A stretch of DNA of 64,000 nt, taken from positions 47,657,847-47,721,846 of the forward strand of contig CP154954.1 in NCBI GenBank assembly GCA_039621445.1, in the 5' to 3' direction. The notes beneath the pieces were generated by a model. That model was not told the origin of the DNA, did no database searches, and saw nothing but the letters and a program-made list of their open reading frames with translations. The translations under genes and the position numbers were made by a program. This document shows positions 1-64,000 of the stretch, piece by piece (the first letter of the stretch is position 1; the number at the start of each line of letters is the position of its first letter). This DNA comes from Euglena gracilis (lineage: Eukaryota).

Positions 1-2379
1 CCCCCCCACAGGGTGACAGCTTCAGCACAAGGTTTCGATCCAGCCAACCTAACACAACCTCCACAGAAGAAAATTTCATGATGCACAAAAAAAAATCGGT
101 GGTGATGGGTTTGGGTTGGTAAATGGGTTTGGGTTCTCATTGAATCTACCCCCCAGAATGAGGCAGGGGTCTTGCTTTTTCTTGTTCTGTTGTTGGAAAG
201 CTCCAGGGGGATACTGGGGTATTTTTTTTGACCAACGTGGGCTCCAGAAAAATTTCAGAAAGAAATGCCTTGCTGGTTCGCGCAGAAACACAAAAAAATT
301 CCCTTCGACAATTCCCGCAACGTACTAAATGAGGCCTGATTGAGAATTTGCATGACTTCCGGAATAGGCTTTCCCAAAAATTAAATTCTAATTAAATCAA
401 ATTAAAATAAATTTGACATTTTGATGTGTTTCTTACTGTCCCTGATTGTGGTTGAGGGGGTCTAAGAATTTTGGGTCTTTTTTATCCTTGCTCTTTAAAA
501 AATGATAATGATGATAATAATTAAACATGATACTATTGAAAGGAGGGGTTTCCTCGCATTTGCTCCACATGTATCCAAAAGAGTGAAAGTTAAACCTGTC
601 GGGGCTTGGGCGGCGGAGGAGGATTGGGATTCTGCAACACTCCAAGGCGCTCCTTCAGCACCTTACGTGGGTGGAGATCCGGCGGCCGTTTGTAAAATTC
701 CTGGGAGTGGGGAAAACGGGTGAAATAAGACAGCACCAGGGCATGAGTTGATTTGAGGTGTTTATATTTGCACTTCCGCCCTGCAATGGTGTTTTGACAT
801 GCGACTGACAATTGCATATACCATATAATCTTCAATATGTTATTTTACATGTTACCACATCACAGATGTGTGTGTACTGCCATGCAAACACAAAAACGAA
901 TTTTTAAGCCATTTTTCAAATTGGAAGTTCTACCCAAGAGAAGGTTACATCCAGTCTGTAGACTTTTTTTTAAAAAAAACCAGTGCCCAACAAAGATAAT
1001 TGCCCCCCGTACTAGAGAGAAGCTTTTGATCCAATCAGGCCCAATCAATATCAGGTATCAAACTACAACCTTGGGCACAATTTCTTTCAAATAGAAATGA
1101 AGGTGTTGATCATCAATATGGTGAATAATCCATATTTGGGTGTACAAACTAATACTTTTCCAGGCTGGATGACGGCCCAATTTCTTCTCTTCCACAGGCC
1201 CCAGACCAGACTTCTTTGTTAGACCCTTCCTTCCCTTAAAGACCACCTACAGGCCAAAAGTGTGGTCAAGGGCCGGTCGGGGGCTTGGATGTGGAAAACC
1301 GAAAAACTGTACAGCCAAAAATGAATGATTATTAAATATTTTTGACAAATTCTGATTTTAAAACCGGTGTGTTTTTGGAGGAAATTTCAGATTTTCGCCA
1401 ACTTCCCCTATTTGAAAGTTCTGAGATATTCTGCAATTATTTTTGCAAATCACCAAAACAATAGTGCAAAAAAACCATAAATTCCTGGCGCAACGCGCTG
1501 GGGAAGAAAAATAATTGGGGTCCCTGAGGGGGACCCCTGATCCCAAAATAACTTATTATTTGCATCAACCGTCATTTATTTAACACATATTATAAATATG
1601 CATGTGCATATCAAACTCGTATATGAGGCACCCCGCGGTGCAGTTGTGCATTGACTGTCTCAGCAATGCTGTATGGAAGTTTTAACAGGATTTTCAGTTG
1701 CTCTGCACCTCCTGGAGGTTAAAGCACACCTCCTGGGTTTGGTGGAATGTGACACACAGGCCTTGAAGCGCCGCAACGAAGAGGCTGTGGTCATACATCT
1801 GTTTAAGGACTGGGGGGTTGCTGGGTTAGGGCTAGAAATTTTTTTGCCCGGGGGTGGGGGGGGCTGGACCACAGCTGCACCTGAGCTGGGCCGGGCTGAG
1901 CCAAAATCAGACAACTGCCCCCAAAAATGACCTGCAAAACACAGCGTTGAAAAAAATGAGCATCTGGCAACTGTCAAAAACGCGCCACAACAGCCCCAAA
2001 AACACCATTTTGGCCATTTTGAACACTTTCAGCCAGAGACAGCAAAAAAAAAAGGCTGGCCAGCCGCGCCAGCACCAACTCCTGGGGTTGCTGCGACTGG
2101 GCTGGGCCAAAATTGAGGCCAGCTGCTACAGCCCCCCCCCCGGGGGGGTCTGCAGAACATTAAAGGGAAGTATGGCTGTGGTGCAGATGTGGCGTGGCAA
2201 AAAGACGGCAAAGGCAGCGGAACGCCAGGGTGGAGAGGGCTGCGCCTGCTTTGCTTCGGGGCGGTTCACAGGACAGGCTTGTTTGCAACAGAAACGCTGG
2301 TCATCATCCTCATCACTGCATAAAATAAACATTGTAGTATGCAACGTATAATTGTGCCGGGGACTGCATTGCATGTCGA

Positions 2380-13370: not shown

Positions 13371-13372
13371 GG

Positions 13373-16000: not shown

Positions 16001-16108
16001 AAAAATCGTGGCCATAACCCGTATTCAGGTCGTATAACGGGTCAAGGGCGCCGAAGGCGCCCTTGACCTGTTATTCGGCCTGAATACGGGTTATGGCCCA
16101 CGATTTTT
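16001..16108. repeat. Near-perfect hairpin of about 108 bp with a GAA loop; second copy at 32752-32859
   Basis: aaaaatcgtgg...tcaagggcgcc GAA ggcgcccttga...ccacgattttt, followed in both copies by tgtaaccgtg...ggcccggcgcctgccctg. Confidence 0.9.
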
Positions 16109-30577: not shown

Positions 30578-31004
30578 CATAGCTGGCACTTCGTTTAAAA
30601 CGAAGCCAAAAAAAACACCCTTTTTTTTAAAAAAACATGTTTTTTTTTAAAAAAAAACAAAAAAAACGCCATTGAGGGTCCAGGGCAAAAAAAATTTTGC
30701 CTTTAATTTTAGCTTTTTTGCCCATCGTCGGTCAGAGAAAGACACCAAATTTGGGATGTTTCAAGTTGAAACATCCCAAAATGTCAGAAAAATGCCCTAT
30801 TTTGACCATTCTTGTTGAAGACAACCAAAAGTATTGGTTTTCAAGTCATTTGAGCTAAGATTGGTTCACCCTTGCGATCAAAGGCAAAATTTGGACCATC
30901 ATTTTCCCCTTTGTTTTTTTTGCCGTTTTTTTTTGCCCGTTTTTTTAAAATAAAAAACAAAAAAAAAACGTTTTTTAAAAAAAACAAAAAAAACGCCAGC
31001 TATG
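30578..31004 (-). mobile_element. hAT-like MITE, catagctggc family, perfect 8-bp TSD
   Basis: attcatcc|catagctggc ... gccagctatg|attcatcc. Reverse complement of 17846-18270. Confidence 0.92.
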
Positions 31005-35105: not shown

Positions 35106-36519
35106 TTCTGGAGGGACATATACCATCAGAATGTGGAGTTGGGGCCGGTCAACAGGACCTCACTGCCAATGCTTGCACCTGAGGGACATTTGCATTTTGG
35201 GAGAAGAATAAAACATGCACACCGCACAGCCTTGAGAGGGCCATTCGCATACACGCTGACTGGTTCGTGGTGCTCTCAAATACCAGAGTTCTTCAGCCAT
35301 GGCGGCCTGGGAGAAAAAAAAAGGTTTTACAATTAAGAATTCCCACAGAATCGCGATTTTTGTAAATCGCGGAAATTGAAACTGAAATTTTCATTTTGGG
35401 TTGAAATCCTTTCAAATTACATTCACAGAGCCAGGATCTAAAATTTGAGCATCCATAGCAGGGGCTGGCCTGGGCCTGGAGGGGGGGGCAATTCGGGAGA
35501 CCAAAGTGAAAAGTGCCAAAAAGTGTCATCATATCTGAGCAGTTTTGGGGGTATTTGGCCAGAAATTGGGGTAACACTATGTTGCGCAAAATTGTTCCAT
35601 TTGGTCAAATTTGGAGAATTTCTGAAATAGAGTACCATGCAGCACGGGAGCTTTGGCAGGGGGGGGGGGGAGGGGGGGTCCCGAGGTCAGTTTTTTTTTG
35701 CATTTTTGGCACTTTTTGCTGTACTGTCTCAACACAGGGGGGGGGGTCCTGGGGTCCCAACTGTACTGCCAACCCCCCCCTCAAAAATTGGCCAAAAACC
35801 GGCGCCGAGGCGCCGGAAAAAATTTTTAGGGCCTTTTTTTTGGTCTAAAAAGGCCATTTTTGGCGTCAAATTTTCATCTGTCTCGGACGGGTCGGCACTA
35901 GGGGGGGGGGTCCCAAAAATCCCAACTGTACAGGGGGGGGGAGGGGGGGGGTCCCCAAAAAACCCCAACTGTACTGCCATCGCCCCACGGCTGAAATCTA
36001 AGGCCATCTGCTGAACGCCCTAGAGAAGGGCCATCGATCAAGGGGAAACATGGCAGGTGAACAGTGGGTTTTGGAATTTGCGAAAAGGGCCGGAACATTG
36101 CGATCGGCAATTTTTAGGGCGCTGTGCAGTGTGGCTGAGTTCTGAGGGTACCAAATGAAAGCTCATGGGGAGAGCTTTCGATTGATATGCCGTATGGCAC
36201 CTGAGGTGTGGGATTTCATAAATTAGGATGTCGAATTTTGGAATACACGATCACTGAAAATAAGAGCTGCGTGCAGTATTGCTGAATCCTGTGGCCATCT
36301 GTCAAAAGCCCTTGAGAAGAGCTTTCGATTAATGGGATTGACAGGTTTTTGGGGTTCATTTCAGTAAAATTCGTATTCACCAAAATATGCCCTGTTTTTC
36401 GTGAATACCTATTCACGAAAAACAGGGCATATTTTCGTGAATTGAAAATATGCCCTGTTTTTTCCGTGTTCACACCCACGAAAAATAGGGCAGGCGCCGG
36501 GCCTCTATTCACGGTTACA

Positions 36520-36909
36520 ATGACAACAACATCTTGGGCTTGGGAATATTTCAAGCGAGTGTTAAAAAAGTTTGGGTATGGGGATGACGTTCTCCCTCAA
36601 TTGAAAATTCAGGTTGGTCAATGGGTGACACGAAGTGGTCCTTTGGCAATCACCACCCGACCTGTGCCAGCACCAATCCAGTTTTGGGAGGGGATTGCTT
36701 TGCATGTGCCAATTTTGGCCAAAGTGTGCCTCACAATTTTTGGCTTGGCTCCGTCTGAGGCATCTGTTGAACGAAGGTTTTCGAACCAGAGTTTGCTCCA
36801 TAGTGATTTGCGAGCTTCTTTGGATGACACGTCTGTGAAAGCCCTCATGTGCGTTCGTATGAACATCCCTCGGTTGATGACCCTGTCTGCTCCTGTCAAG
36901 GTTGAGTGA
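36520..36909 (+). pseudogene. hAT transposase C-terminal dimerisation domain remnant
   Basis: PIQFWEG...PILAKVCLTIFGLAPSEASVERRFSNQSLLHSDLRASLDDTSVKALMCVRMN fits the hATC pattern (W..., LA, PxSxASVERxFS, R.SL). Confidence 0.85.
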
Positions 36910-39519: not shown

Positions 39520-40080
39520 AAAGATGGGCGCTGGACCTGTTCTTCGGAACGGGAAGTCTGAAAAGAGCGCTGGAGAAGATGGGCTTCAAGGTGATCAGCG
39601 TGGACTGTGACGAGAAGTGGAAGCCGGCCATCGCGGCCGACGTGAGGAAGTGGAGGTACTGGGAGCAGTACGTTCCCGGCTACTTCGAGGTCATCGCGGC
39701 GTCCCCGCCCTTGGCGGACGCGGTGGTGAAGGCCACGAGGGAGCTGGTGGAGTACTTGGCGCCCACGCGGTGGTGGATTGAAAACCCGAGGTTCGGCTTG
39801 CTGCGGTGGCGACGAGTCCTGCGCGGAGTGCGGTACTTGGATATCGACTACTGCCGCTTCGCGGAGTATGGGTATCGCAAGCCGACCCGCTTCTGGGTCA
39901 GTGATGCGATTGCGAAGGAGCTGGACGACGTCATCTGTGGTGGGAAGTGCGGCAGCATGGTGGAATGACCAGACGGCGTACGAAGACATCGGCTACAGCT
40001 GGGAGGCAGTGGCGGCGAGCGCAGGTGCACAAGGGAGGAGGCCTACCGCATCCCGGAGGGAGTGGTGCGGTACCTGTTCC
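39520..40080 (+). pseudogene. C5-cytosine DNA methyltransferase domain
   Basis: ALDLFFGTGS (motif I), ISVD, ASPP (motif IV with the catalytic Cys and following segment missing), WWIENP (VI), YCRF...YRKPTRFW (VIII-like). After one TGA (39966-39968) the same frame continues to EAYRIPEGVVRYL. Confidence 0.78.
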
Positions 40081-40219
40081 TGGGGGAGAAGGCACGGGAA
40101 GAAGTGGCGGCGGCGGAAGAGGCGAAGAAGGTGCGGAAGGTGGTGGTGCGGCCGTGGCAGCACCTCCCGAACCGGCCGTTCACGGTCGGCCGGATGGAGC
40201 ACTGTGGGGGGTGCTACCA

Positions 40220-40440
40220 GCTGCTGATGGACGTGGAGGTGGAGGCAGGCGGGATGAAGATCCAGGCGAAGGCCTTGATCGATACGGGGGCGCAGACCTC
40301 CCTCGTGAAGAAGGAGCTGTTCTCGGAGTCGGTGTTCCACGCGCCAACAAGATCCTTGGTGCTGCGCACGGTGAGCGGAGAAGCACTACCCGGAGGACAA
40401 CGAGAAGCAGAGCTGAAGCTGTCCTTCGCGGTCCACACAG
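40220..40440 (+). pseudogene. Retropepsin-like aspartic protease domain
   Basis: LLMDVEV...KALIDTGAQTSLV...LRTVSG, in frame with the flanking domains. Confidence 0.8.
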
Positions 40441-40449
40441 GAGAAATTG

Positions 40450-41200
40450 TGCAGGAATTTTGGAGAAAGGACTCCATTTTGCACATCAATGTAAACGAGC
40501 TCAGTGCAGCAATCAGCACTGTGAAAAGTTTGAGCAAACCTGGAAAACCGTTTCCTTGTCAGTGGACAACCCAGGTAATTTACTTTTACCTAACAAAAGG
40601 TGGGGGTAGAAAGGACCCCTTCAACAAAATGCTGAGACCATTTTTCAAATGGTGCATGGAAAAACAAGTAAACCTCCAAGTCAACTGGGTACCTTCAAAA
40701 GAACGCCTGGCAGACCCCATCAGCAGATGGGAAATGGACAGGGGGGATTATTCTTTAGACCCCCAACTTTTTCAATGGCTCAGACAGCAGTTCAAAGATT
40801 TTATAAATCTTGAAACAGATTTATTTGCCTCCCCAGGCAACAAAAAAATGCCAAATTTTATGGCCAGGTGGCCCCATTGGGAAGCCACAGCAGTAAATGC
40901 TTTACAATGTCCACTGGACAACATGGGGGATCTTTATGCAAACCCCCCCTGGACAATAATTCAACAATTTCTACCCAGGTTTAAAATGTGTCCGCAGACA
41001 AAAGTTTTGATAGTCACCCCCTACTGGGATTCAGCCACCTGGTGGCCCCAATTAATGAAAATGAGAGTTCCAGGGACCCCCTGCCTGAAAATCACCCCCT
41101 ACAAGGGCATGTTCACCAACTGCAGGGGGGAGCAAATGCCACGCCCCAGATGGCCCCTACTCTGCATGATTTGCTCAGGAAAATTTTGGAGGGGAAGCAA
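40450..41200 (+). pseudogene. DIRS-type RNase H (C-terminal part) plus N6-adenine methyltransferase domain
   Basis: HINVNEL...(VDN in a locally shifted frame)...YLTKGGG...WVPSKERLADPISR, then DLFAS...LYANPPW...TPYWDSATWWP. Confidence 0.85.
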
Positions 41201-41930
41201 GTACAAATTACAACCATTAACGATTTCCTGGTCAGAAATCCAAGCTTAAGGCGTCATCAAAGTGCTTTTTCACTTCTGTGGGTTATTTTGGAGAAAACGG
41301 GGGTGCCCCCCCCTGAAGCCACCACAGACCAGGTGGCTGACGCTTTAATTCAATTATTTCAATTTTTCAAGGCCCAAGCCCGTAATGCATATAGTGCAAT
41401 GCTTTGATTCCTGGGTTTGGTGGACTGAGATTCCACACCCTGTTAACCCCCTACAAGAGACTTTGGAACCAAAACCTGGATAAGTATGGTGCATTTTGGG
41501 ACCCCCTCCCAATCCTCCTGGGGCTGGCAAAGGCGCCTATGCCTACTGATATTTGTACATTGCGTACACAACTGATTTTTTTCTCACAAATCATCTGTTT
41601 ATACCGATCCTCAGACTTATCACAAGTCAAACGAACCACCAGTGTGTTGGGTAGGGAACCCTCATCAAGATTAAGCGTAAATGACAGAAATTACATAAGT
41701 GGCAAAGGGTTGTGTCCATACCCCAGTGTCCCCAAATAAGCCCATTTCATTTAATGATGTGCTATGTGGCTGCCACACGTTCATTCGTCAGACCTGGGGG
41801 GCCCCTCCTCATTTCATTAAAACCCCCCTTCAGGGCCATAAGTGCACACACGATTGCTTCTATCACAAAAGACTTTTTGGCCAAACATGGGGTACCCCCC
41901 AGGTGTGGGGGGCCCACTCCACCAGAGGGA
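41150..41930 (+). pseudogene. Tyrosine recombinase, frameshifted and truncated before the catalytic Tyr
   Basis: Overlaps the MTase 3' end in another frame. YRSSDL (catalytic R box) and GAHSTRG (HxxR box) are spread over several frames. Confidence 0.75.
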
Positions 41931-48258: not shown

Positions 48259-48374
48259 ATGTCTGGTGGGCCAGTGACCACAATTTATTGCACAGAACTC
48301 CCACGCGATATGACAGAACGGGAGTTCTACAATCTTTTCCAGTTTGCAGATGGTTTTGAGCAGACATCTCTTTC
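48259..48374 (+). CDS. RRM RNA-binding protein (RBPMS/couch-potato-like), exon 1
   Basis: MSGGPVTTIYCTELPRDMTEREFYNLFQFADGFEQTSLS has RNP2 plus an LP.D...RE..LF helix. Followed by aaaCAGgg. Confidence 0.85.
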
Positions 48375-51300
48375 AAACAGGGTGTATTTGAAAGATGGAT
48401 GTGCAACAAAGCGTCAACTTGGAAAGCTGTGCTGTCACAACTCCCGCTTCTTCTTGGAGTTCACAAGTGATTGTGACTTCCCAAGATTTGGGGGGTCCGC
48501 ACTTGGTTTTCTTAGCCGGAGGGGTCCAGCCAACTATTAACTTTTTTTTTCCAGCCACCAACTCCCAATCGTCCCCCCCCCCGTGGGGGTCCGCTGAAAT
48601 AAAGTTTGGACCAAAAGGAATTGACCTTTTTAAAAAGGGGGGCAAACGGGCTATTTTTTTGCGGGGTTTTGGGTTTTCGCCTCCAAACTTTGGCAGAATA
48701 TGCCAACCCGGCTCTATTTTGATGTTTTGGGGTACCGTGCTGGGACTAGCCAGCACGTTTCTTCTAGCCAGCACCTTTTGGACCCTTTAGCCCGCACCCT
48801 TTGGATGAGCTTAGAGATAGTCCTATTCCCTTGGTTTTTTTTTATTTTGCTCGGGATCTAGGTTATAGTCAGGGGTCGTTTTGATGGTTGGGTGATTTGT
48901 TTGGTAAATTTTTGCTCCTTTTCCTTTCAAAATGGAGTTTTATCGTGGAATGTCATCGGAATTTCACAAAACTTGCCCAAAATGGCATTTTTGGCCATTT
49001 TTGGCCAAAAAAGTGCGCTTGTGGTGAACTTCACCGGTGAAGTTCACCGTTGGGTTAGGCAGAGGCTGTATTTTAGTCGGGTGCCGACCCCACCCCGGAG
49101 GGGGGGGGGTGCCTGCCTGGGCAGGCACCCCAAGGCACTCCAAATCTGATCCCACGGGGGGGGGGGGCACACGGCCAAAAGTTCCCTAGCACAGACCCCG
49201 CGCCAAAGGCGCCGGGGAGCCAAAAATGGCCTATTTTCAAAGGAATGTGCCTCGGCACAGGCCGAAATCCGCCCCCCCAAGTGGGGGGTAGTGCCTGCCT
49301 AGGCAGGCACTCATAGACACTCCGGACCCCCCCTCCCCCCGTTGGTAAAAAACGGCCTGGTCCGGGCCCCCCCGGTGAACTTTCAAACGGTGAACTTCAC
49401 CTAGAGGGGAGGGGAGGGGGGTCCAAAATCCCAAAAGTCACCACTTGATCTCCAATGAAAACCGCGGATTATCACCATGACCCCGGCCCGGATCCCAGAA
49501 TTTTTTTTTCACTCACCAGCGACTGGCTCCTGAGTTTCCGAATCACCTCCGTTTGACCCCCAACTCCCCGCCAGGCCCGTTGGGTGGGATTCGCCAACCC
49601 CCCCCCCCAGTTTCGACTCTGCCATTTTGACAGGGTGAAGGGGGGTCACGGGGGTCATGGGGACGACCCCCCCCAAAATACACCCCCCCTCAAAGTGTCC
49701 CCCCCAAAGTGGCCAAAAGTTTTGGCTTTACCTCCCCCCCTCGATTACTTTGGCGCCAAAGGCGCATTTGACACCCCCCAAAGTGTCCCTCCCCAGAGTG
49801 GCCATTTTGGGGTCCCACGGTGCCTGGAGGGTGGCCACTTTGAGGGGGGGGGTGAGGGCAATCAGGTTTTGTGCAATTCTGAGCTCTTTATGTATGTGAT
49901 GGTGCCATGGAGCCCAGGTACACGGGGGGGGGACCCCCCTGTTCACTTCCGAACTGAACTGGACACGTTGACTTCCCGGAGGGGGGGGGAGGGGGGGAGG
50001 GGGGGTCCGGCGCCGAAGGTGCCGAAATTTTGCATGAAAAAGTGCCTTGATTGGTGTGTGCTGATCCTTCTGGTTTTTTGGTTTTTTCCAGACGTGAACA
50101 AGTGTTGTACACGGGGACCCGGGACCAGGTCAGCTGGGTTCCCCACCCCCCCAAAACCCCATAATCACCGGGGCCACTGCTGGTCAACACCCCCGAATAG
50201 CGAAATTCTGGCAATTTTTCGACATAAATCGGGGCGGGGGGGGGGGACGGTGTGATTTTCGGGCCAGATTGCCTCAATGCCAGGAAACGGGGGGTGCCAA
50301 AAAGTGCGACCAGCCCCCGGGACCAGGTCAGCTGGTTTCCCCACCCCCTAATCACTTCCGAAATGAACTGAACAAGGGGGAGGGGGGAGGGGGGGGGTCC
50401 GGGGTCCCGAAGTGGATTACTAGCCTCCCATGCAGCATCAGATGTTCCAGGTGTGTGAGGCGGTCGGCGGAGGTTCGGCAGCCCCCCCCCCCCCAGTGGT
50501 CGGACCCCTCGGCACGGCAAAATGGGGACCCACCCCCCTGGTCAGCCAACCCCCTCGGCACGGCATGCCGAACCATACCAATGAATTTTCCTTTGGGAAA
50601 TTCCGGCTGTCCGCCACGGTGGACCCCCCCCTCTGGGGGACTGACCCCCTCGGCACGGCAAAATGGGGATCCCCCCCCTGGTGGTCGAGGGTCCTCGTCA
50701 GACGTGCCGAACCTGCGGCCTGGTGGCCCGGCCCAGCCAAGCATGGCATGGTCGGCGGCCCGGCCCGGCCCGGTCCAACCCCGGCCCAGCCCGGCACACC
50801 CAAAATTCTCACGAGGAGGAGCCCAGGTCACCGCGGTGTAACCGCGGTGTAACCGTGGTGTAATCGCGGCGAGAACAAGACCAATATCCCCCCCAAAGGG
50901 GTGTTCCCCCCGCAAACATCCCGCGTCCCCCCGTGTCCCCCCTGCGGATTTTGGCCAGGCATGTTTTTTTGGTCGACCAAAGGATAATTACACACAAATT
51001 TGGGTGACGCCAGAGAAAACGTGTCGGGCAGTTGGGCCACGGTTCCCCCCCGCGTCCCCCTGCGTTCTGTACCACCCCCAAAATAAGACCCGGTTTTTTT
51101 TTTGGGTCCCTTGTTTGCTGACCCGGGCCTGAAAACATCATTTTCCAGGTTCTCAAAAGCACTAAAATTTTTCTTTCGGCATTCCGCGCCATGTGTAAAC
51201 TGGTTCAATTCATCTTTTGCCCTATATTTGGAACTCAATACCATGCCCCCCCCCTTTCTGTTTCCCCCCCTTACTGTTCCCATTGGGGGGACGGGAACAG

Positions 51301-54300
51301 TACAGTGTCACAGCACTCTTTGTAAAGGATTCTTGGAATGCAAGGCAAAATGGGATTTTTGGGTTGGTTTTAGGTGCTCTCAATCCCACCAAAATCCAAC
51401 CCAATGCCAAAATGGATGTTGTGGAGGTGCAATTCAAGCATGCAAACCAAAAAAGCTTCATTTTGGCTTTTAGGTGGCCTTTTGGGTCTAACTTGGTTTG
51501 TTGGTTCATGGCCCATGGGAACAGTAAGGGGGCGGGGTGCTCGTCCCCCCCCCCCTTACTCCCCCCTTGCTGTTCCCATGGACCCAAAAGGGGGCCACAG
51601 GGCGGGAACAGTAAGGGGGGGGCATGGTATCCCAAAATTTTTGAAATTTCATTTATTGAACTTGTTTAAAAAATGAAATTTCAAATTTTTTTGGTAATTT
51701 TTCAGGGAAAAAAATTCACCATCTCTGCCGCTTTGTGCCGTCATTGGGGGGACTTGTTTTTGGATTTGCTTGATATGGGCCGCGATCCACGGGGGTCTTA
51801 TTTTGAGGGGGTCTTGTTTTTTGGGGGGTCTTATTTTGGGAGGTCACCCATTTTGCCAACCCCCCCGGGGGGTCTGACCCCCTCGGCAAGGCAAAATGGG
51901 AAGCACCTCCTGGGTGGCCGAGGGTCCTCATCGGACATGCCAAACCTCATACACATACATTTACCACCCAAACACTCAATCAGGGGGGTCAAATAAGGGG
52001 GGTAGTGGTTGGTTGACAGGTGGAATCCAAACCAAGATCATCGTGCAAAAGCGATTTTTGAACTCTGCCTCGGCTACCTTGCAAGGCATCTTGCCCACGT
52101 AACCGCGGTGATAACCGCAGTGTGGGCTCCTCCTGAAAAAGGCAAGTTTTTACCCCCAGTTTTAAATTGATAATTTTATGCAAACCGTGTCCAGGGGCTC
52201 TGGCTTCATGCCCGAACCGGCGTCCTTGGACGCCGGTTCGGGTGTGAAATTGGGGGGGGGGTTTGGGGTGATGATTTCCTTTTGGCCAATTTTGGGGAAT
52301 TTTTAAGGACATCTGCTGAAAGCCCTGGAGAAGAGCTTTCGATCAAGGGGCAACATGGCAGGTGAAACAGTGGAATTCGAATTCGAAAACAGGGTCGGAA
52401 CATGCGATCGCCAATTTTCAGAGCGCTGTGCAGTGTGGCTGAGTTCTGTGGGTACCAGGCGAAAGTTCTTGGGGAGAGCATTCAATTGATATGCTATATG
52501 GTGCCTGAACTTTGGGATTTGACAAATTAAGATGTCAATTTTGGAATGCACGATCGCTGAAAATATCAGCTCTATGCGTTATGGCTGAACTTGTGGCCAT
52601 CTGTCGAAAGCCCTTGAGAAGAGCTTTCAATTGATAGGTAAACCCCTCCCCCCATTTAAACCGACCTGTCGGTTTAGGACGTTTGGGTTGGCAGAAATCC
52701 TGGAGGGGGTTGGTTTAGACGGGGGGGTCGGTTTCAGGGCACACGGCTGGCTGACGGCTGGCCGACGCCGTGACGGAAGCGGGTTGATGTTAGCAAGGCA
52801 ATTTCGATTTGGAATGCAAATGCCCAATTTGGTCGGCCAATTCCTAACTTTGAGTGACAAATGCCCAATTTGGGATGGAAATTCTTAATTTTCGGGGGCA
52901 AATGCTGAATTTTGGGTGTAATATCCAATTTTTGGTGGCAAAATGCATAGTTTTGGGTGCAAATTTCAAATTTTAGGTTGCAAATGCCTAATTTTGTAAT
53001 TTTTGGGTGCCAACTCCAAATTTTCGGAGGAAAATGCCCAATTTGAGGTGCAAACTCCAAAATTTGGAATAAAATGCCTAATTTTGGGCGTAAAATCCTA
53101 ATTTTGGGTCATCAATATTAACCATTCAATGAGCATGGACGCTCTTTCTGTTGGCGGCTTCCATTATGTTGTGCAGGTTTGTCATCCAACTTGCCATGGG
53201 TCGATTTATTTCTTTTGTTGGTTGAAATTCTGCAATGGGTCGGTTTGGAAGGGTAGGTTGGTTTAGAAGGGGGGTCGGTTTTAATGGGGGGGGGGGTTTA
53301 ACATGGCTTCAGAAGTGTGAAACCTGCCAATTTCTATCACGACCAATTACGACCAAAATAACCCAAAAGTATCCCAAACATGGGTATTTGGGGCGAAATT
53401 GGCCGTGATTCCTTGGACGTCGGTTTGGGTGTGAAGCCGGAGCCCCCAAGACAAGAAACTTTTTTTCTTCAAGAAACTGTGTCCAGGACGCCGGTTCGGG
53501 CGTGAAGCCAGTGCCTGGGACGCCCGAACCGGCGTGCTTGGCACCGGCTTCATGCTCGAACTGGCGTCCTGGACACAGTTTTCAATATAGAAAATATGGC
53601 ATTTTTTTAGGGCTTTAGTTTTGGACATTTCCTTTGATTTTGCTTCATCTCCGAAATATTTTGGAAACATCGATTTTTTGACCCCGAAAACTGCCCGAAA
53701 TTGGGTCAAAACTGCCCGAAAAATTGCCGTAACTCGGGCCACACAAAGAGTTGAGGGGAAAGTAAATCATGGTTGGATAGGGTATTCCAAGGGCTTCATT
53801 TTTGCTCTCCGGACATTTTTTTTGAAAAATGTATTTTTTTCACCAAAAAAGGGCCCCAAAACACCCCAAAATGGCTGTTTTGGGCCACAAAATCGTTCCA
53901 GAGCACGGGCCAGGTGTGTCGGCATCCTAAACGGCGAACGGGGGGCGATAGAGGGCCTCCAGGGGCACATTTGGTCAGAGACACTTCCGGAGATAATGTA
54001 CGTTTTCTTGAGATAAACCCCCCAATTAGAAGCCCCCCCCCCCCTTGGGTTTACCGCCAAAAATCCAAATCCCCCCAGCCAATCCGGCTGACAAAATTGA
54101 CGAAAAATGTTCCGAAAAATAGTGAAAAACTGGACAAATCTCTGCGAAAACAGGTCGACATCAGGAACAAAATTGATAGCTGGTATCCTTGAAACACGGC
54201 CCATCCACCCAAAACTCAAAGAAAGTGAGCCTTGCACATCTTTGAAATTTGAGCCCGTTCGATCCCCGGATTGGCCGCCGGCCGAAGGTTTTCCTTTAGA

Positions 54301-55404
54301 CAAAGGGTACCCAATTAGAAACCCCCACCCTCGGGGTTTCCGCAGAGTGAATAGTAGCCTCGGGGGGCTTCTAATTGGGGGGGGGGTTATTTTGGAAAAT
54401 TTGAACCCTGCCCAGAAAATTCCTCGGTCTGTGGAGAAATTTGAGGCGTGACCATCTTTTTTTTGTGCCCCGCGCTGTCTTTGGTCCTCATCTCCCCCGT
54501 GACCCCCCCATGGCCCCCGTGACCCGGCCCACCCCTTTAAGTTAGAGCTGGCATTTTGTATTTCTTATTTTGAAAATACACAGCTTTTTTGAAATAAACT
54601 TTTCAACTCGGCGTCACCGTCTCCTTGCATCTCACCCAAAATACCTTGAATGCCCAGGAAACATTTTGCAAGAAAACATGCGAGATTGTCGGTGTGGTTT
54701 TACACCCAAAATTCTCATGAAAAAAGCAAGTTTTTCCCCCCCGATTTTAAATTGACATTTTTGTTAAGATTTTTTTTTGAAAAATTGGGTGTAAAAAAGC
54801 AGGTCAATTTGCTGAAAAGCATGTTTTTTTAAAACCTATTTCCAGGGCCCGACACCTGTCTTGAAAATCGACTGACATAAACGGGCAAGGGTGCCGTTCA
54901 TGTTTGATGGTTTTCAAGACAGGCACCCGTTCATGTCAAACGGGTTTCAAGACAGGCGCCCGTTCGTTTCGAACGGTTTTCAAGATAGGTACTGTTGGGA
55001 AAAACAGTTTTCAGAGGGGTGCCGTTTTTTTTTGATGAAAACCACAAAAAAGCGTCAAAAAAATCCATCGTACGGGATCTTTATCGTTGAACGTTGCTCA
55101 AGACACGCGTGCGGGCCCTGCAAAATAGGTTTTTGACAAATCGACCGCACTCACGGTTTTAGCAGGGGCGCCGGGCAGGCGCCCCTGACCATCAGTGGCA
55201 GTTGATTTTTGCTTTAATATAATACAAAAAACAAAAAAAGAAAGAAAAAGAAGGGGTGACACATCAACCGTGTCACCCCTATGACTTCCCGTGACCCAGA
55301 GCGCAGGTTATTCTTAAACCACAAGGATGATTTCCCCAAGTCGTCACTTTTATTTGAAAGTCAGGAGTTCACCAAAATGATCTGCATAAGTCATCCCTGA
55401 TGAT
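48375..55404 (+). other. Nonconventional intron 1, 7030 nt, filled with nested repeats
   Basis: tc|aaaCAGggtg ... catccCTGatgat|gacc. CAG at +4..+6, CTG at -8..-6, Y|R at both junctions, and the join is in frame. Confidence 0.8.
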
Positions 55405-55483
55405 GACCACCAGCAGCGGAAATCTCATGGGGTTTGCACGGTTTAACAGCATTGAGCAAGCGGAGCAGTGTGCCGCATATTTG
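55405..55483 (+). CDS. RRM protein exon 2
   Basis: TTSSGNLMGFARFNSIEQAEQCAAYL has RNP1 (MGFARF) and helix 2. The 3' boundary is uncertain by 1-3 nt. Confidence 0.85.
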
Positions 55484-58400
55484 GGCGTGGAATCTCTTTG
55501 TGATCCAACCATCAATTTTGATTTGCCATTTCTTTTTGGATTCTTCTTCGGTTACATTTTTTTTGCGGAGGTTTCAAGTGTGATAATTTCAGGGGGTGCA
55601 GTCCCCGTGGTGCCCCACTGTGACCCGCAAATTGGGCCTCAGCAGGTTGAGGAAATAATTTCCAAAATGACTTAGAAAGGCCCTTTTTGAGCCACTGCCC
55701 GTTTTTTTTTGGTTCCCGAAAGAGGCCATCCCCCCCTGTAACCCCCCCCCCCACGGTGACCCGCTCCACCCCCTCAAGGCAAGAATACGTTTTCACTAAA
55801 TGCTGTTTTTTCTAAAGAGAACACAACTCCTCGTTTGTTCATGGGGAAATTGTATTTACAGCCAGGACCATCACAAGTTGGCAAACCCAAAGCAGCCAGT
55901 GAAAGTTGCCCCCCCCCTACCATTCCCGTTCCAGGCTCTTCACGGCCCAATAGAGACTTGGCAGGGGGGTGCACCACAGTGTGTGCCGTTTGGGGGGTCT
56001 GGCCAGGGCGGCGCCTTTGCCACTGGCCAATTTTTTGCCATTTATTTTGAAAATGTGTGAAAAATTCATTCTATAATTTTTCAGGTCGGGAAACAACTTT
56101 TCAACAAAAAAATGTTGGTCCAGCTCTCCCTTTTTTTCAGGCAAAAGTGGGGGGAATTCACCCACTCACCCTCCCATTCCCCCCCCCCCCCTACCCACCC
56201 ATTCACTCCCTCCCCCCCCTGCACACAATTTTTCCGAAGACCCCCACCGCCTGTGTAATTTTTGTTGATTTCCTTTTGGAACCCTGGTACGCTTGCAGAT
56301 GAAGACACCAAAGGGGTCTTTATTGCTCCCACCGGACCCTGAGAAAACGTTTCTCAGTTGGATAAAAATCAAACAAAACCTGATTTATGGACAGCAAAAT
56401 GGTTTATGCCAACAATGGACCCACTTTTTCAGAAGCAAACCGTTGTCAAATGCTGTTTTTTTATAGCTAACCTTGAGTATATTTTGCCCCAAACCCAAGT
56501 GTTTTCGCCGCCCGTCCTCAGAATTTTCGCTGGTCTGTCCAAATATTTCCGCCCCGCGTGCAATCATTTCCGCCCCTGTTCCATTCTTTTTTGCCACAAA
56601 GTTTTTCACTTTCGCCCCTGCCAGGTTAATTTTCGCCACTCTGAAAAATTCTTTTTTCTTGTTTTCTCTTTCCTTTTCCAGCCATGATGTCCAGTCAAAA
56701 TGTTTCTGGTTCCTGAGCCAGAGGTAGGTTGAGAGTGCACCACAATTTGCTGAATGCCAGGGGGTTTTTTTTAATCTTGGACCCCTGGGGGGGAGGGGGG
56801 GGCAGGGTAGGTGCGTCCGGCCCAGCCTGCCCCCCTGGGCCTGGGGGGATATACTTGCCGGCCACAAAGGATCCGAGAATTTTTTGAAAAGGTGCTATTT
56901 TCAGCATTTTTCGTGATTTTTTGGCCATTTTCGGGGAACGAGAGTGGGTCCCCCCGGGACCCCCCCCCAGGGGGTGGGTGGTTGGGGGGAACCCCCCCCT
57001 CCCAGTGCTGTGGACCTTCTTGGCCATCTGGGCCAACTTTTTTTTATACTTTTTTGGCAAGTTGAGGTCATTTCAAGCCATCTTTTGACATTTTTTGGGG
57101 CCGCTTTTTCTTTTTTTAAGTCACTTTTTGGTCTTTTTTTGGCCCAAAATGGCCAAATAAATGTCCCAAGGGTCCCAGGCACTTCCTGAAAGTTTTCTAA
57201 ATCCTCAAAATAGTCTCAAGAAAAGTGCGCATCATACCCTCCCACCCAAAGTGGCCACCCTCTAGGCGCCGTTGGACCCCAAAATGGTCGCACTGGGGGG
57301 GACAGTTTGTGGGGGGCAGGCTTTTTTTGTCTGGTGCCTACCCCACGGGGGGGGGTGCTGGGTGCTGGGGGGGTCAATTTTGTTTGGCCTTCGGCACTTT
57401 TGGTGCCGAAGGAAAAACGTCACTTTGGGGGGATAAACCAAAATTTGCCAATAATTTTTTTGTCCATTTTGGCCGGGGGGGGGTGAGCTTTTTGAGGGGA
57501 GGGGTGAGGGTAAGCGGATTTTTTTGCATATTTTTTCACACATTCGCGCATTTTTGCACTTGTTCCATGCCCTTTTCATGAACGTTTGATGCATTTGCAG
57601 CAACAGTGCATTAAACCCTCCGGTGTGTTATTTGGGCACCCGAACTGGGGCCCAGGGGGGTGTGTTATTTGGGGGGGGGTGTTATTTTTACATGGAAAAC
57701 CAAAGGAAAACAGGGGGGGTGTTATTTGGGCGCTCGAAATCGGCCCCCGAGAGGGGGTGGTGTTATTTGGGGGGTTTTAAGGTGTGCCCCGTTCAACTGC
57801 CAAGGGTACCGGGAGTAACGGGCAGGTGTGGTGAAAATGACGAGGATCAATGGCAAAGTAAACCAGATCAAGTTTGCGAAAATGTATGGAACTGCGGCAA
57901 AAATTCTTTGGAGGACTGGCTAAAGTCGTGGGGTTGGGTGGCGAAAGGTTCCTGGCCAGGGGGGGGGGGGCGGAAATTTTTAAGGTAAGGTATAACAAAT
58001 GAAACACATTTCAATGCCTTTTTTTTGGACAACGAAACATTGTATGTCAGGCAACTTTTTGCGCTCACCACCTCTGCTCTGATTTGCATTGCTTCCCACC
58101 GTTTTCCCTTGAGAAGGTTTGTTTCCAACTGCCACAGGCGGTGGTCCTCTTTTGCCGTGTTTCGCTTCAGGCCCGTCCTCGAATGCCATTTGATGATCTC
58201 AGAGAGATGTACGCCCCAGCCGTGTGGTTTCAGAGTGAGGTAAGGGCGGGGGGGGAGATGACGTCGGCAGAGGCAGGCCCACTGGGAGCCAAAAAAATCG
58301 GCGTCGTGGCCGCAATTTAAGAAATGCCTCGGATGCTTTTTTGCGCATGTGCGCATTCGCCGACGTTTTCCTCATGCGATGAAGCACTGCCGGCACAGTT

Positions 58401-61400
58401 GGGATTTGGGGTGCCCATCACTGAGTAATTTTCTCAGGCACTGAAGTCCCTTTCTCATCCGTTTCCCCAAGGTGTGGCGCAGTGGGATGTGCAGAAAAAG
58501 CAGAATGGAAAAATTGCTGGGTTTAGCTGTAACATTTTTTCTGATGTGTCTGTGCCTGACTCACTGTTTCAGGGGCCCGGAGAAACTTTGGGGCAAGGAC
58601 TGACCAATGTTTTCGCTTCTTTGAACCCAATTGGATTGTGAAATAATTCTATTTTTTCGGACGGTTTTTGGGAGTGGTGCCAAAGTGCTGACAGGTATGT
58701 TTCGCTCTCCGGTTCCAACGCAGTGAACACCGTGTGTGTGGAATCAGACACGATCCCCAGCGTTGGCCCTGGTCGCGGTGCACAGTGCTCCTGGCACCGT
58801 GCGCCGCAGCGCAACATGAGGTTGTTCAGGGGACATGTTGGCTGTGTGCTGCATTGTATGCTCTTGGCTTGGGGTTGGACAATGCTGGTTGCAACTGGCC
58901 AATCACCTCCGCAGGGTGGGGGACATGGTGCATGTGAGTTGTGACGTGCTCTACACGTTCATGAGAGCAGCACAAGGGCTGGGCACTGGACAGCGGTGGG
59001 TGACCTGGAGTATGCAGGTGTGCATTCCGATGACTTGAACTGCAGGGGGGTAGTTTCCTATTACTGAAGGACATGAATGTGTGTGAGATGCCTGCCGTCG
59101 CTGAGCTCAGGGTTTCCCACACCATTACAGGTGTTGTGTCATGGCCTGTCAGAGCGACACTCCTGCCCCCCCTCCCACCCTTCTGATTGTGATTCTCCCA
59201 CCCCTCCCCTGCTCTCCAAGAACAAACAAGGTCCTTTTGTAAGTGCAAGGCACAGTTTTTCAATGGTACACACACAAATGAACCCTGTTGTGTACAGGTA
59301 GACGCCTGATAAATGCTGTTGTGCACTGGTGAAAGCTCTTTGTGCATGGGTCCAAAAAAACAAACCAACACTGCGGCTCACAGACCAACAGAGTTGAAAA
59401 ACCCCTCAAGGCGCCTTAAAAAAAATTGAATTTGAAACCGGAAAACAAAAATATTTGGAAAAACTTTCTGTCAAAAAGAATAAAGACTGGGTCATATTTC
59501 GACAATGATTACAACATAGATTGCTATGAGAAAAAGAAATGAAAGAGGCCCATGCGGTCAGCAATGTGGTGTGGTGAGGGTGGTGGCCTCGGCGCGGAAA
59601 TGGTCACCTGAGTCCTCAGGTGGTCAAAAGTCAGGATTCCAAATTTTCTGGGGGGCCCGCCTCAGGAGCATCCACAACGTTGGGGAGGGAATTGGGAATA
59701 TAATTGGGGGTAGTCCTCAGATGGCCGGGAATGTAGTTTTTTTTGTTGAAAATGCGCATCTGCGCATTCCGAATAGTTCTGTGCCTCTTCCAGGCTGGGT
59801 GAAAACACCTCAAAACTGAGCTGCTTTTGTTTCATGTGACCACAAGACCCACTCTCTCATTTTCTGGTTTAGCTGTGTGCCATGCCGTTTGTAGCTGATT
59901 TGTGACGACTGCGGTACAGTGCACGGCTGGAGAAACATTTGGAACGCTCTTCATGGCGGGTGACGGAGGCCAGTCTCGACCTGGTTTTATCACCGTGCGT
60001 TCACCGATGCGTGCTGAGGGTTCCTGGCGGCAGGGCCAGAGCGTGGGAAGGAATTTTCTGCAGCCATAGAGACACAGCCCTCCCAGGGGGAGTGCAACAG
60101 AGTCCCACGTCCAGAAAGTGCGGACCTGCGCATTTTTTGGAACCCCAAGAAAATGCGCAGGTGAGCAGCTTTGGAATGGACACAGGCTGTGCACAGGGAG
60201 AATGCATTGATGTTGAAGGACACACTGGGAAACACCGTTGTTTGCCTGCCTTGGATCCAAGGCATGGACTGGGGGAGGTGGGGAGGGGAAGGGGGTGCCG
60301 GCCTCCCAGAGCATGGTTACCAGGGAGCCTGGTGACCTGGAGCCTCTCTGTGGCGCTCCTCCAGGAAGCCAAATGTATTTTTTATTTTCGTTGCGGACCC
60401 CCCTGAGGGCAGTTTCACTGAAAAAAATAATAACCCATTTTGGGACACAAACTGAAGAAACTGCTTCCATTGCTTGGCTTCAATTTCACAAATTTTTATT
60501 TAAATAATACAATCAATTACCAGTGTTTCTTGTTCACAAGAAAAGTTTCTGGGAGGAACTCTCTGAGTGAATGACAACTCAATGAAAATGAGAAAGGGTC
60601 GCTGTTCGACCTGCCTTGGAAAAAGACGGTGCCACATAAATGAGGAGAATTTTGCAACCCCTCGACTTTTGTGGGTGGGAACTCAACCCCAAGCCCCAAA
60701 GCCTATGTGAGTCCATGGGCTGTGGTGATGGTGTGTGCACACTAGCACGGCCCTGCCCCACGCAGCAGCACCCCAGCCAGGGCTTTGGGCAAAACTGAGG
60801 CCACTTGTGTGAAAGCAAAATGTTTCTATTTGTGAGCAAGGGGGCGAGGTGGTCAATCCTGGGGTGGGTGGCGTTTGGTCCCAGCTTTGGACAACGCATG
60901 CTGAACCCCTGTCAACGCTGGCTGTGGAGGCAGTGACTTGGTCAAGGTGACCAAATTGGGCTAAAATGGTGAAAAATGGCTCAAGTCAGCCAAAGCCCAC
61001 CCACCTCAGTATTGACGACCTCGCCTCCTTGACTGGGCAGCGGCTTGAGTGGAAAGCAAAGAAGGACACAAATGGAAACATTTTGCTCTCACACAAGTGG
61101 CCTCAGATGTGTCCAAAGCCGTGTGGCAGAGCTGGCTGGGATGCTGCTGCGTGGGGCATGGCCGTGCAAGTGTGCACACACCATCACCACAGCCCATGGG
61201 CAAACATAGGCTTTGGGGCTTGGGGTTGAGTGTCCGCGCACAAAACTCGTTTGGCACATTTATTTCGTTTTACATAGATTTTCATGGTATTAGTTGAACA
61301 CAGGTTCCACACTTTTTTTTGCCTGCACCCATTACCTCATCTATTGTCATTTATCTTTGTTTTATTACTGCACCCGGCGACCGAATTTTTCTCGTTTCAC

Positions 61401-61797
61401 ACCATGTGGTTTTGCACTTCCGGCCATTTTTTTTGCCCTTTATCTCAAAAATGTTTGCACTTTATCTCAAAACTGTTTGCACCTTTTCCCAAGAATATTT
61501 GCTTCCGTTCCGAAAATTTTTGCACTTGGATAGGTCGTTTCGCATTATCGCCCTTTGAAACTTCAACCGGAGTGGAGTGTCTCTTTTTCCATTGCGCAGT
61601 GTGAGGCTTTTTTATTGTGCAAAATAACACGACGGAGGGCAATTTTTTTGAGGGCTGGGCAAGAATCTTGACAGGTTGGGGCAAATGTTTTTGCCAGCCA
61701 TGGACAAACATTTCAGATGCCAGGTGTAGTTGTTTTTAGAGGAGAGGGAGGTTCAGGGTTTGATGTGTCATCAGCGGCTGGAAGAGGTTTCATTGCC
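55484..61797 (+). other. Nonconventional intron 2, about 6.3 kb
   Basis: 5' ggcgtggaatctctt pairs with 3' aagaggtttcattgcc using G-U pairs. No GT-AG. The exact register is ambiguous (YLNG, YLDG or YLGNG). Confidence 0.7.
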
Positions 61798-61817
61798 AAT
61801 GGCCGGATTGTGGACCC
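61798..61817 (+). CDS. RRM protein exon 3 (20-nt micro-exon)
   Basis: aat ggc cgg att gtg gac cc = NGRIVDP, the expected LNG...DP segment. Both flanks pair with the distant intron ends. Confidence 0.75.
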
Positions 61818-62207
61818 ATCTGAGCACTTCCTGTATTTATGGTTGCAAGTCGCTTAGAAGTATTTTACTTAAGTGTACACCCCCACCCAGACCCACACCC
61901 ACAGCACCCCCCCCTCCCCCCATATGGCCTTCATTCCAACTTCCCCCCTGGGCGTTGGGAAGGGGTGGTCGGATCCCACCTGCACAGCCTCTTAAATGAG
62001 ATCACACAAATTTTTTTTCTGAGTTGCATGCTGGAGATCACAAGAACAATCGCATTCCCCGCCACCTCCCCATACCCGCCCGCCCATCTATCCATTCACA
62101 CCCACACACGCACACGTTGGCCCACCTGCCCGCCCACCCATGCGTACCGCGTGCAACAACCCTGGGAGCCTGCTTGCGAGATTGTCGCCCGGAGGTGCTT
62201 TGGCCCC
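61818..62207 (+). other. Nonconventional intron 3, 390 nt
   Basis: cc|atctgagcacttcc ... ggaggtgctttggcccc|agca. Paired ends, Y|R junctions, in-frame join D-P-A-S. Confidence 0.78.
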
Positions 62208-62351
62208 AGCATCCGGGGCCGTCATCAAATGCATGATGGCTCAGAAGAACCTCAAACCATCGAGCCGCCCCCCGGTGGCTAAGAGGCCCTTCGGGGACGT
62301 GTTGGGGACCTCGCTGCCGGTTTCGAAGGCGGCCCGGACCTCGCCCGCGTC
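62208..62351 (+). CDS. RRM protein exon 4 (3' end uncertain)
   Basis: ASGAVIKCMMAQKNLKPSSRPPVAKRPFGDVLGTSLPVSKAART has RRM beta4 (equivalent to LRLEFAKAN) followed by a basic tail. Confidence 0.75.
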
Positions 62352-63370
62352 TCTCAGGCACAGCCACATTTGGGGGAGAATGCAGTTGAGTGGCAAGGAA
62401 TCCTGCATCTCTGTCATATGCTCACTGTGTTAAACATTGTCCATTGGTTGGAACGGCCCCCTTGGATAATGACCACCCATTGATAATTGTTCACTGAGGA
62501 AACTTTCACCAGTTTGAGAACATATTGACCACCTGCCAAAAATTCTGGAGGTAAAAATGCAGAGACTGAAAAAAGAAGGTCCTGTTGCATTCATTGTATA
62601 CATTTTTGGGACACCATTTTTTTTCACAGATTTGGGCAATTTTGGGCCACTTTGAACCTGCAAGAGCAAGTGTATGGTCTTTCGCATCTTTTGTCATTCT
62701 GGGCCAATTAAGGGTCATTTTGGGGGCCATTTTGGTTCATTTCGGTCATGTGGGACCTTTTGATGGCATGCTGACCCAGTTTTGACTGTATTGACCGTTT
62801 TGGTCAAGGAAATGATTTTTTTTGTCTTCTCGACCCTCATGTTCTCGACCCCCATTTGTAATGACCTCCTCGTTGTTATAAATGAGGGGGTTGGGTCGGC
62901 CTGCAGGTATTGGTTTTCTTTTCCCACCGTTTGCTTTCTTGTTATGTCGATGCGGGTGGCTGACAGGCAAAAAAGAAACAGCTGGATTTTTTGCACCTTG
63001 CCTGCCTGCTCCCAGGGGAAGCATTGATGGGGTTTAACTGCAGCCACTAAACTGTGTCCTCCCTGTAACTGAGTCCACCAAATATCTCCAGGCAGATTGC
63101 TTCAGGAAAGGTTGAATAATCCTTGAGCATTTACAGTTGGGGGAAATTGCCGTGAAAATCTATGGCCAGGATCAGGATTTCTTTCCCAATAGCCAGCAGC
63201 AAGAAACTTTTGCTTCCGGTTGTGATTGCTGTGGAAGACGGTCATTTTTTGCGTGCTTCCAAGCAGCCAGCATTTTTTCAAGAGGTGGTGCTGAAAGACG
63301 AAATTCTTGAGATGTGAATGCCCATTTAGCCTTTCAACAAACCACACCTGCAACCCAGTGAGCTCCAGCC

Positions 63371-63855
63371 CAGGCATTATTATTCATTTAAAACTTTTTA
63401 ATTTGAAATTACTTCAAATTAAAAAATTTGAAATTTTTTAAAACAAAAAAAATTCAAAAATTTTTTATGGTTTCTAAAGGCGTTTCTTTATTTTTTTTAA
63501 GGGTTTTTGAGGCATTTTCAAATTTTTAATAATTTTTAAGGCGTCTATTTGTCATGGGTGGTCAAAGAGCCATCTGGACATCGATCCAACGTCGGTCCAG
63601 GTTGAAAATCAAACCCATTTTTTTGAGTTTTCGGTAGACACACAATGTTCCAGTGATGCCAGAAATCATTCCCCCCGGGGTTTAACTTGCTCTGCGGAGA
63701 TATGCGACTTCTTTTTTGATCAAAAGATTTGAAAAATTTTCCAACACCAATTTTTTTTTTAAGTTTTTCTAAGGCATTTTGGTTCAAAAATTTTTAAGGT
63801 TTTTTGAAGTTTTTTTTTAAAGGTTTTTTAAGGTTCCTTAAGAAAATAATACCTG
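63371..63855. mobile_element. 485-bp hAT-like MITE with a perfect 8-bp TSD; probable nonconventional intron 63368-63860
   Basis: ctccagcc|CAGgcattatt ... aataatacCTG|ctccagcc. AT-rich interior related to 2380-2806. Removal gives an open frame V-S-S-S-L-P-G-P-G-Y-S-G. Confidence 0.75.
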
Positions 63856-63860
63856 CTCCA

Positions 63861-63886
63861 GCCTTCCTGGCCCGGGCTACTCTGGG
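63861..63886 (+). CDS. Tentative downstream micro-exon (LPGPGYSG), probably of the RRM gene
   Basis: GC-rich segment between the 63368-63860 element and a possible 61-nt intron at 63887-63947 (tcaCTGggtattt...aaatgatccCAGcagac). No homology support. Confidence 0.35.
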
Positions 63887-64000
63887 TCACTGGGTATTTA
63901 CGAGGAAAAAATTTGTTGATTGAATCCCAAAAATGATCCCAGCAGACCTTGTCCAAGAGGGCACTCATTTAATGCCCCCCCCCCCAACAAGACACCTTTT

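Follow-up and report, generated by a model that had tools for sequence, protein, structure and literature searches.

A probable hAT-type MITE with the ends of a nonconventional intron lies inside an intron of a Euglena gracilis RRM gene

By what route euglenids came to have nonconventional introns, and why these are spliced 3 nt before a CAG and 5 nt after a CTG, are the questions raised by a transposon-like element near the end of a 64,000-nt stretch of the Euglena gracilis genome (contig CP154954.1, positions 47,657,847 to 47,721,846; hereafter the window, in whose own coordinates all positions are given). This element, here called A, begins with CAG, ends with CTG and is flanked by an 8-bp direct repeat, of which 3 nt precede the CAG and 5 nt follow the CTG within the span that such an intron would occupy. 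Our reading, to which we give a probability of roughly 0.8, is that element A is a MITE, most likely of hAT type, that inserted fairly recently into a large nonconventional intron of a plus-strand gene for an RRM protein.

Element A (63371-63855) is 485 bp long, non-coding and AT-rich (GC content 0.29), with internal repetition and no assigned strand. Its left TIR, CAGGCATTATT (63371-63381, plus strand), is complementary to the right TIR, AATAATACCTG (63845-63855, plus strand), at 10 of 11 positions, the sole mismatch falling at position 5, and the left TIR pairs with the right end in the predicted RNA fold. Directly abutting the TIRs stand two identical copies of the 8-bp target-site duplication (TSD) CTCCAGCC, at 63363-63370 on the left and 63856-63863 on the right, likewise without a strand. 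A repeat-family listing gives a 9-nt repeat here because the G before the left copy is the same as the last base of the element. The longest ORFs of the interior, of 73 and 82 aa, contain no Pfam family at E<0.09. Element A is a MITE: it is short, has TIRs with a TSD abutting them, and lacks coding capacity. Re-reading positions 63363-63863 returned the 485-bp CAG...CTG element, the imperfect TIRs and the perfect 8-bp repeat just as the initial annotation had described them.

Perfect, non-palindromic 8-bp duplications flank five elements of the window (A, C, D, E and G), so that duplications of this length recur here. Element C (17846-18270; 425 bp) carries the TIR CATAGCTGGC and the duplication ACTGACCG; element D (30578-31004; 427 bp) belongs to the same family in the opposite orientation, with the duplication ATTCATCC, and the ends of this family are CAT...ATG. 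Element E (20252-20679; 428 bp) has a G-rich TIR of about 20 nt, the ends AAG...CTG and the duplication CCCTCACC. The largest of the five is element G (24558-26058; 1,501 bp), whose TIRs CAGGGTAGACG / CAGGGATGACG are bordered by the perfect 8-bp duplication GTCCCGTC; as with A, no strand is assigned to these four. The flanking repeat of a further element, H (18355-19617), matches at 7 of 8 positions and is of low complexity. The start CAGG is common to A, G and H, whose 8-nt flanking repeats are perfect or nearly so, and to element B, a relative of A described below. Element F (60742-61170) was rejected as an 8-bp-TSD element, its supposed duplication TGTGCACA being palindromic and part of a longer inverted repeat. 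Scans of the window for Rfam families and tRNAs gave 0 matches.

The setting of element A was defined with RNA evidence on 53301-64000, which came from two raw-read runs labelled as the same species and a contig run in which a spliced contig occurs; a fourth data set over this region is a contig run of probable DNA type. Four exons lie on the plus strand. Exon a (48259-48374) extends from the start codon to a splice site whose position comes from a read consensus: the consensus upstream of 55405 matches 48358-48374, a match that 0 of 100 shuffles produced, and the positions of exon a and of the 5′ border of the first intron, I1, follow from this match rather than from reads aligned over that region. 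Exon b (55405-55483) is defined by RNA reads. The joint from 55483 to 62201, which spans 6.7 kb, is carried by 20 reads of one run (X21), 4 reads of the other (X24) and one RNA contig of depth 977; the 13 extra letters found at this joint have a single exact match in the window, which is the 13-nt micro-exon c (61798-61810). Exon d (62201-62351) is delimited by depth, joint and RNA contig and has an open frame. A single open plus-strand frame runs through all four exons and has an RRM-like look; exon a alone gave a sub-threshold match to RRM_1 (E 0.02) over positions 1-22.

None of the three complete introns (I1, I2 and I3) has GT-AG borders, and the 5′ end of the fourth, I4, is not GT either. 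I1 (48375-55404, plus strand; 7,030 nt, non-slidable) reads AAA-CAG...CTG-ATGAT|G and matches the published nonconventional code exactly. From the printed boundaries, it is the only one of the three that fits, I2 and I3 departing from the code, and its own borders lack an 8-nt repeat, with 2 of 8 positions matching. I4 starts with TCT-CAGGCA after position 62351, where three RNA runs show a loose end. The read consensus beyond that point, which belongs to the next exon, has no match in the window, and this puts the 3′ end of I4 outside it; the part seen here is 62352-64000 on the plus strand. The proposal that the host gene has introns of the euglenid nonconventional type has thus held up, given that the RNA-defined introns are all non-GT-AG and that I1 fits the code. 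Elsewhere in the window lies a frameshifted transhydrogenase fragment of roughly 500 bp (35053-34553), whose best named relatives are in Euglena mutabilis and Eutreptiella braarudii; together with the intron types, this marks the host as a euglenid, a point that the initial annotation had assumed without evidence. Considered as a second gene for intron mapping, the transhydrogenase match was set aside, being only a frameshifted fragment with no introns to test.

Element A begins 1,019 nt downstream of the 5′ splice site of I4. The initial annotation had proposed it as a candidate intron, and had named flanks outside exons beforehand as a finding that would speak against this. The flanks are not exonic: in the two raw-read RNA runs, of each of which about 5-6% was read, a portion in which rare pre-mRNA forms lie beyond view, depth is 5-7 in the exon d bin, 0 across 62583-63296, at most 0.18 across 63297-63653 and at most 0.07 across 63654-64000. 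The 493-nt gap expected at about 63368-63860 if the element were spliced does not appear among the 15 best-supported joints shown of 93. Nonconventional introns separate exons and are missing from the mature mRNA, a description that does not apply to element A. Since its flanks lack exonic RNA and it lies within I4, this copy is not itself an intron. In place, it is intronic cargo without visible effect on the mature mRNA, and its insertion into I4 would be fairly recent, the 8-bp duplication being still perfect.

The ends of element A nevertheless have the geometry that the initial annotation ascribed to them. The splice code has been defined genetically as 5'-N3CDG-/-CH'GN5-6|R, with a donor spacer of exactly 3, an acceptor spacer of 5 at best and 6 tolerated, and a purine as the first exon base (Nomura et al. 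2025, PMC12501133); one section heading of that paper mentions synthetic introns. For element A and its duplication the sequence is GCC-CAG...CTG-CTCCA|G, in agreement with every stated part of the code. The same agreement is seen for element G (GTC-CAG...CTG-GTCCC|G), and elements C and D, with CAT...ATG ends, do not fit. The terminal stem of element A is present in both the MFE and the centroid RNA folds, so that its ends pair as the code has it; the fold of the whole element does not stand out in stability (z -1.5; 6 of 100 shuffles at least as good). Cuts at 63368/63860 take out 493 nt, that is, the element plus one copy of the duplication, and restore the pre-insertion sequence. The arithmetic of the initial annotation, by which the 3 nt before CAG and the 5 nt after CTG make up one copy of the 8-bp duplication, is sound, and it is independent of orientation because CAG...CTG reads alike on both strands. 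This relation would hold for any CAG/CTG element flanked by an 8-bp duplication, and it does not demonstrate that such elements turn into introns.

These features make a form of splicing within I4 worth weighing. Element A could be removed at the RNA level from the I4 pre-mRNA as a nested, twintron-like nonconventional intron (63368-63860). If the cis-code suffices, the machinery is expected to work on any sequence that carries it, and element A with its duplication contains every part of the published code, including a terminal stem that forms in the predicted fold. Natural nonconventional introns and variants of them were spliced after knock-in into a foreign exon (PMC12501133), which also points this way. 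Against this stand the joints just described, none of the 15 best-supported of the 93 corresponding to such an event; the flank depth of 0 means that there is no pre-mRNA coverage in which to see it, and the mature mRNA would stay unchanged even if it took place. We consider nested removal unlikely, and prefer to regard element A as a MITE carried along within I4.

The proposed relation between such MITEs and introns can be set out as follows. The ends of element A carry the complete cis-code: CAG and CTG at the two sides of a paired terminal stem, a 3-nt spacer before CAG, and a 5-nt spacer after CTG that is followed by a purine. Both spacers (3+5) come from the 8-bp duplication. Inserted in an exon, such an element is predicted to be removed together with one copy of the duplication, the mRNA being restored exactly; we infer that element A would be splice-competent if exonic. 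Extending this, we suggest tentatively, and at slightly less than even odds, that the 3-nt and 5-nt spacers exist because they sum to the 8-bp TSD of CAG...CTG hAT-type transposons; that exonic MITEs, in either orientation and with a purine at position 6 of the duplication, are born as precisely removable introns; that bursts of hAT MITEs were the main source of nonconventional introns (about 70% of the introns of E. agilis); and that A and G are living members of the source families.

Some direct comparison of introns with elements is possible within the window. The exact 10-mer CAGGGATGAC occurs in it only twice, once at the 3′ end of element G, abutting the duplication, and once at positions -15..-6 of I1. 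Allowing one mismatch raises the count in the window to 11, against 3.5 expected, and 0 of 100 shuffles get that far. When the terminal 16 nt of I1 are compared with G, 14 positions align end to end with a score of 21, which 4 of 300 shuffles attained. Six other end-to-end comparisons between intron ends (I1-I4) and MITEs of the window were all at chance, and BLAST of the intron ends against the window gave no MITE match and no similarity beyond the terminal motif. The likeness between the ends of I1 and G may therefore be called suggestive, if thin.

The 8-nt repeats seen at young nonconventional introns may instead have arisen by double-strand-break repair, with MITEs such as A as unrelated bystanders. 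This is how the authors themselves read the eight-nucleotide direct repeats at a newly gained intron, intron 4 of gapC, in one E. agilis strain (Milanowski et al. 2016, PMC4770533). It would also accord with the short direct repeats seen at the borders of 84.4% of all introns, the conventional class among them (PMC12501133), and with the interiors of I1 and I4, which are unlike the MITEs of the window beyond the terminal motif. On the other side, repeat families with CAG...CTG ends, TIRs and repeats of exactly 8 bp outside exons bear the signature of transposition, and CAGGGATGAC is found only at the end of a TSD-flanked element and at the 3′ end of the RNA-verified I1. On balance we hold break repair with bystander MITEs to be improbable.

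For the assignment of element A to the hAT superfamily the window offers some evidence. The C-terminal dimerisation domain of hAT transposases (PF05699, E 2.5e-7, 30.8 bits against a cut-off of 21.4) is encoded by the ORF at 36349-36909, in a transposase C-terminal remnant of about 115 aa at 36532-36909 on the plus strand. A tblastn search of the window with 15 hAT proteins returned 36532-36903 only, save for a match at 664-825 at chance level (E 0.15). A hAT catalytic core was not found upstream of the remnant, nor were TIRs or element ends recognisable around it, and no autonomous hAT element with TIRs matching those of A was found within the 64-kb window; a metagenome scan for relatives of the closest longer hAT protein returned nothing. 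The hAT signature is the sole transposase signature among the ORFs scanned with Pfam (30 of the 46 listed with at least 150 aa). The genome thus holds hAT transposase sequence, as a C-terminal remnant, together with the 8-bp TSD at A and at C, D, E and G. The claim that element A is a hAT-type MITE has fared well as regards MITE anatomy, TSD length and a hAT remnant in the window, and its hAT part is best worded as probable: judging from TSD length and TIR start only, element A is most likely a member of this superfamily.

Other superfamilies, namely P, Merlin and Mutator-like, also make 8-bp duplications. A CAGG start is typical of hAT ends, and the TIR of element G opens with the same bases as the terminal repeat of maize Ac. 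Element A could belong to one of the non-hAT superfamilies, in which case its match to the CAG/CTG of the intron code would be a coincidence. The superfamily markers at hand are a TSD length and a short TIR only, the remnant at 36532-36909 lacks recognisable TIRs by which it could be tied to element A, and Merlin transposons have been reported in Discoba by one paper. Set against these points are the lack of any other transposase signature among the 30 ORFs scanned with Pfam (of 46 listed, at least 150 aa) and the CAGG start shared by A, G, H and B. We judge a non-hAT membership to have little likelihood and retain the assignment of element A to hAT as the most likely one.

Element A has a diverged relative in the window, as had been claimed. 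Element B (2380-2806, minus strand; 427 bp) has CAG...CTG ends, lies in the opposite orientation to A and has no intact duplication, its 8-nt flanks, as printed, agreeing at 1 of 8 positions. The global alignment of A and B scores 200, compared with 16.3 +/- 6.3 and a maximum of 42 for 200 shuffles (z about 29); identity is 73% over 390 aligned columns and 88% in a 43-nt core. A 22-mer from this core had no match in a metagenome scan. Further copies of the family are hinted at by the contig run of probable DNA type, in which the two bins of element A have summed contig depths of 30,809 and 8,482 and the three bins immediately upstream have 145-198, values that signal repeated sequence and are not a copy number. 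The joints 63668>63815 and 63670>63814 inside the element were seen in contigs and resemble what other, internally deleted copies of the family would give.

Chance controls were applied to the flanking repeats. The window contains 468 CAG...CTG pairs with a TIR of at least 10/14, of which 2 have flanking repeats of 8/8 at offset 0; at five control offsets, 7/8 or better was seen in only 0 or 1 pairs. A separate TIR+TSD scan, which overlooked element A itself because its 5-nt seed spans the TIR mismatch, found flanking repeats of at least 8 nt in 0 of 20 block shuffles. That element A is a chance match or an assembly artefact, as its AT-rich, internally repetitive sequence and the 143-146-nt internal skips in contigs of other runs might suggest, is extremely improbable in the face of a GC-rich 8-mer duplication adjoining a 10/11 TIR, the diverged relative B, shuffle and offset controls nearly free of comparable flanking repeats, and independent runs that cover the bins of the element.

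Several parts of this picture were in print before. A MITE-like origin of these introns was proposed in 2013, when no transposable elements had been identified in euglenids (Milanowski et al. 2014, PMC3935182), in line with the statement of the initial annotation that a transposon origin had been suggested earlier. 'TSD-like' repeats, together with CAG/CTG TIRs at +4..6 and -8..-6, appear in the drawing of these introns given by a 2024 review (PMC11282704). The genetic study of the code repeats the MITE idea, leaves 'slidable' introns out of its logo and calls the origin of nonconventional introns unclear (PMC12501133). The novelty of the 3+5=8 relation is accordingly partial: the MITE origin, the TSD-like repeats and an 8-nt repeat at a new intron had been published, and neither the naming of hAT nor the tying of the spacers to an 8-bp duplication was found in our searches of the main texts of open full-text papers, those outside subscription.

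Comparison with known systems helps to place element A. With hAT MITEs of the Ac/Ds type it shares the 8-bp duplication, short imperfect TIRs starting with CAGG, and a non-coding, AT-rich sequence, in a window that also holds a hAT dimerisation-domain remnant; no autonomous partner with matching ends was found for it in the window. Work by Giroux in 1994 is said to have found Ds spliced from maize transcripts. With euglenid nonconventional introns, as far as the cited sources describe them, element A shares CAG at +4..+6, CTG at -8..-6, terminal pairing, a purine as first exon base and direct repeats at its borders, and it differs from them in not lying between exons and in that its removal from mRNA was not seen. 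The introners of Micromonas, Aureococcus and other algae offer a parallel, in that insertion makes a ready-made intron, the duplication gives part of the splice signal, and the element is removed with one copy of the duplication (PMC11282704). Their duplications are of 3 nt and their borders are spliceosomal GY-AG, whereas here there are a non-spliceosomal CAG/CTG stem, spacers of 3+5 and an 8-bp duplication, and splicing is predicted. The noncanonical MITE-derived introns of Fritillaria borealis likewise have a TIR and a TSD at their borders, and the host machinery there tolerates non-GT-AG ends; unlike the euglenid case, they are removed by a modified U2 spliceosome (PMC11282704).

The locus itself is ordinary, a transposon copy within an intron. 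Its window does show, in one euglenid genome, CAG...CTG TIR elements with intact 8-bp duplications, a hAT remnant, and an RNA-verified intron (I1) whose 3′ end shares 10 nt with the TIR of one element. The hAT origin of nonconventional introns is not demonstrated by this locus; it is a testable hypothesis that is logically sound and consistent with the published genetics and with one published case. With it, what had been a vague 'MITE-like origin' of euglenid nonconventional introns takes a specific form, open to checking against annotated genomes that already exist.

The RRM-protein gene (48259-62351, + strand) is interrupted by introns that lack GT-AG ends and measure 7.0 kb, 6.3 kb and 390 nt, and it includes a micro-exon of only 13 nt (61798-61810, + strand). 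Besides the main junction of its first intron, 48374|55405, which fits the published code for nonconventional introns (5'-N3CDG-/-CH'GN5-6|R) exactly, the gene has a minor alternative junction at 48340|55389, slidable by 3 nt, that uses a second, nested pair of CAG (48347) and CTG (55382). This alternative falls outside the N3/N5-6 rule, because its spacers total 10 nt (3+7 or 6+4). It changes the length by a net -18 nt, and the reading frame is therefore kept. In the two RNA-seq runs, the minor junction was represented by 3 reads against 39 for the main junction in X21, and by 6 against 5 in X24.

The C-terminal part of a hAT transposase (PF05699) persists as a remnant at 36532-36909 on the + strand, and the catalytic core of such an enzyme was not found within the 64-kb window. 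Nested repeats lie upstream of this remnant and occur again at 32861-33054 and at about 16000-16350. A frameshifted NAD(P) transhydrogenase fragment of roughly 500 bp (35053-34553, - strand) covers residues about 218-415 of about 1,000, with Euglena mutabilis and Eutreptiella as its best named relatives. No further transhydrogenase exons were found in the 64 kb, and the fragment looks like a pseudogene or a captured fragment. The longest ORF of the window, encoding 395 aa (40062-41249, + strand), has a Dam methyltransferase as its sole match, which is sub-threshold (E 0.004; 17 bits against a cut-off of 28).

Other repeats were also observed. A 1-kb tandem array at 12372-13371 comprises about 6 copies with a period of 162 (or 325) and 94% matches. 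The region 60719-61193 forms a long, near-perfect inverted repeat with palindromic flanks and perfect outer arms of 12 nt, within which contigs from two runs join opposite strands at 60835/61151.

Relative B, a diverged copy of the CAG...CTG element (2380-2806, - strand), has GCATGT on each side (2371-2376 and 2808-2813). The copies are offset from the CAG/CTG ends by 3 nt on the left and 1 nt on the right, and the pair does not form a proper duplication.

Two copies of a single MITE family of roughly 426 bp, with CAT...ATG ends, were observed at 17846-18270 and 30578-31004. Both carry perfect 8-bp duplications. Under the published code these elements should not be spliceable, and with this prediction they therefore constitute a natural negative control.
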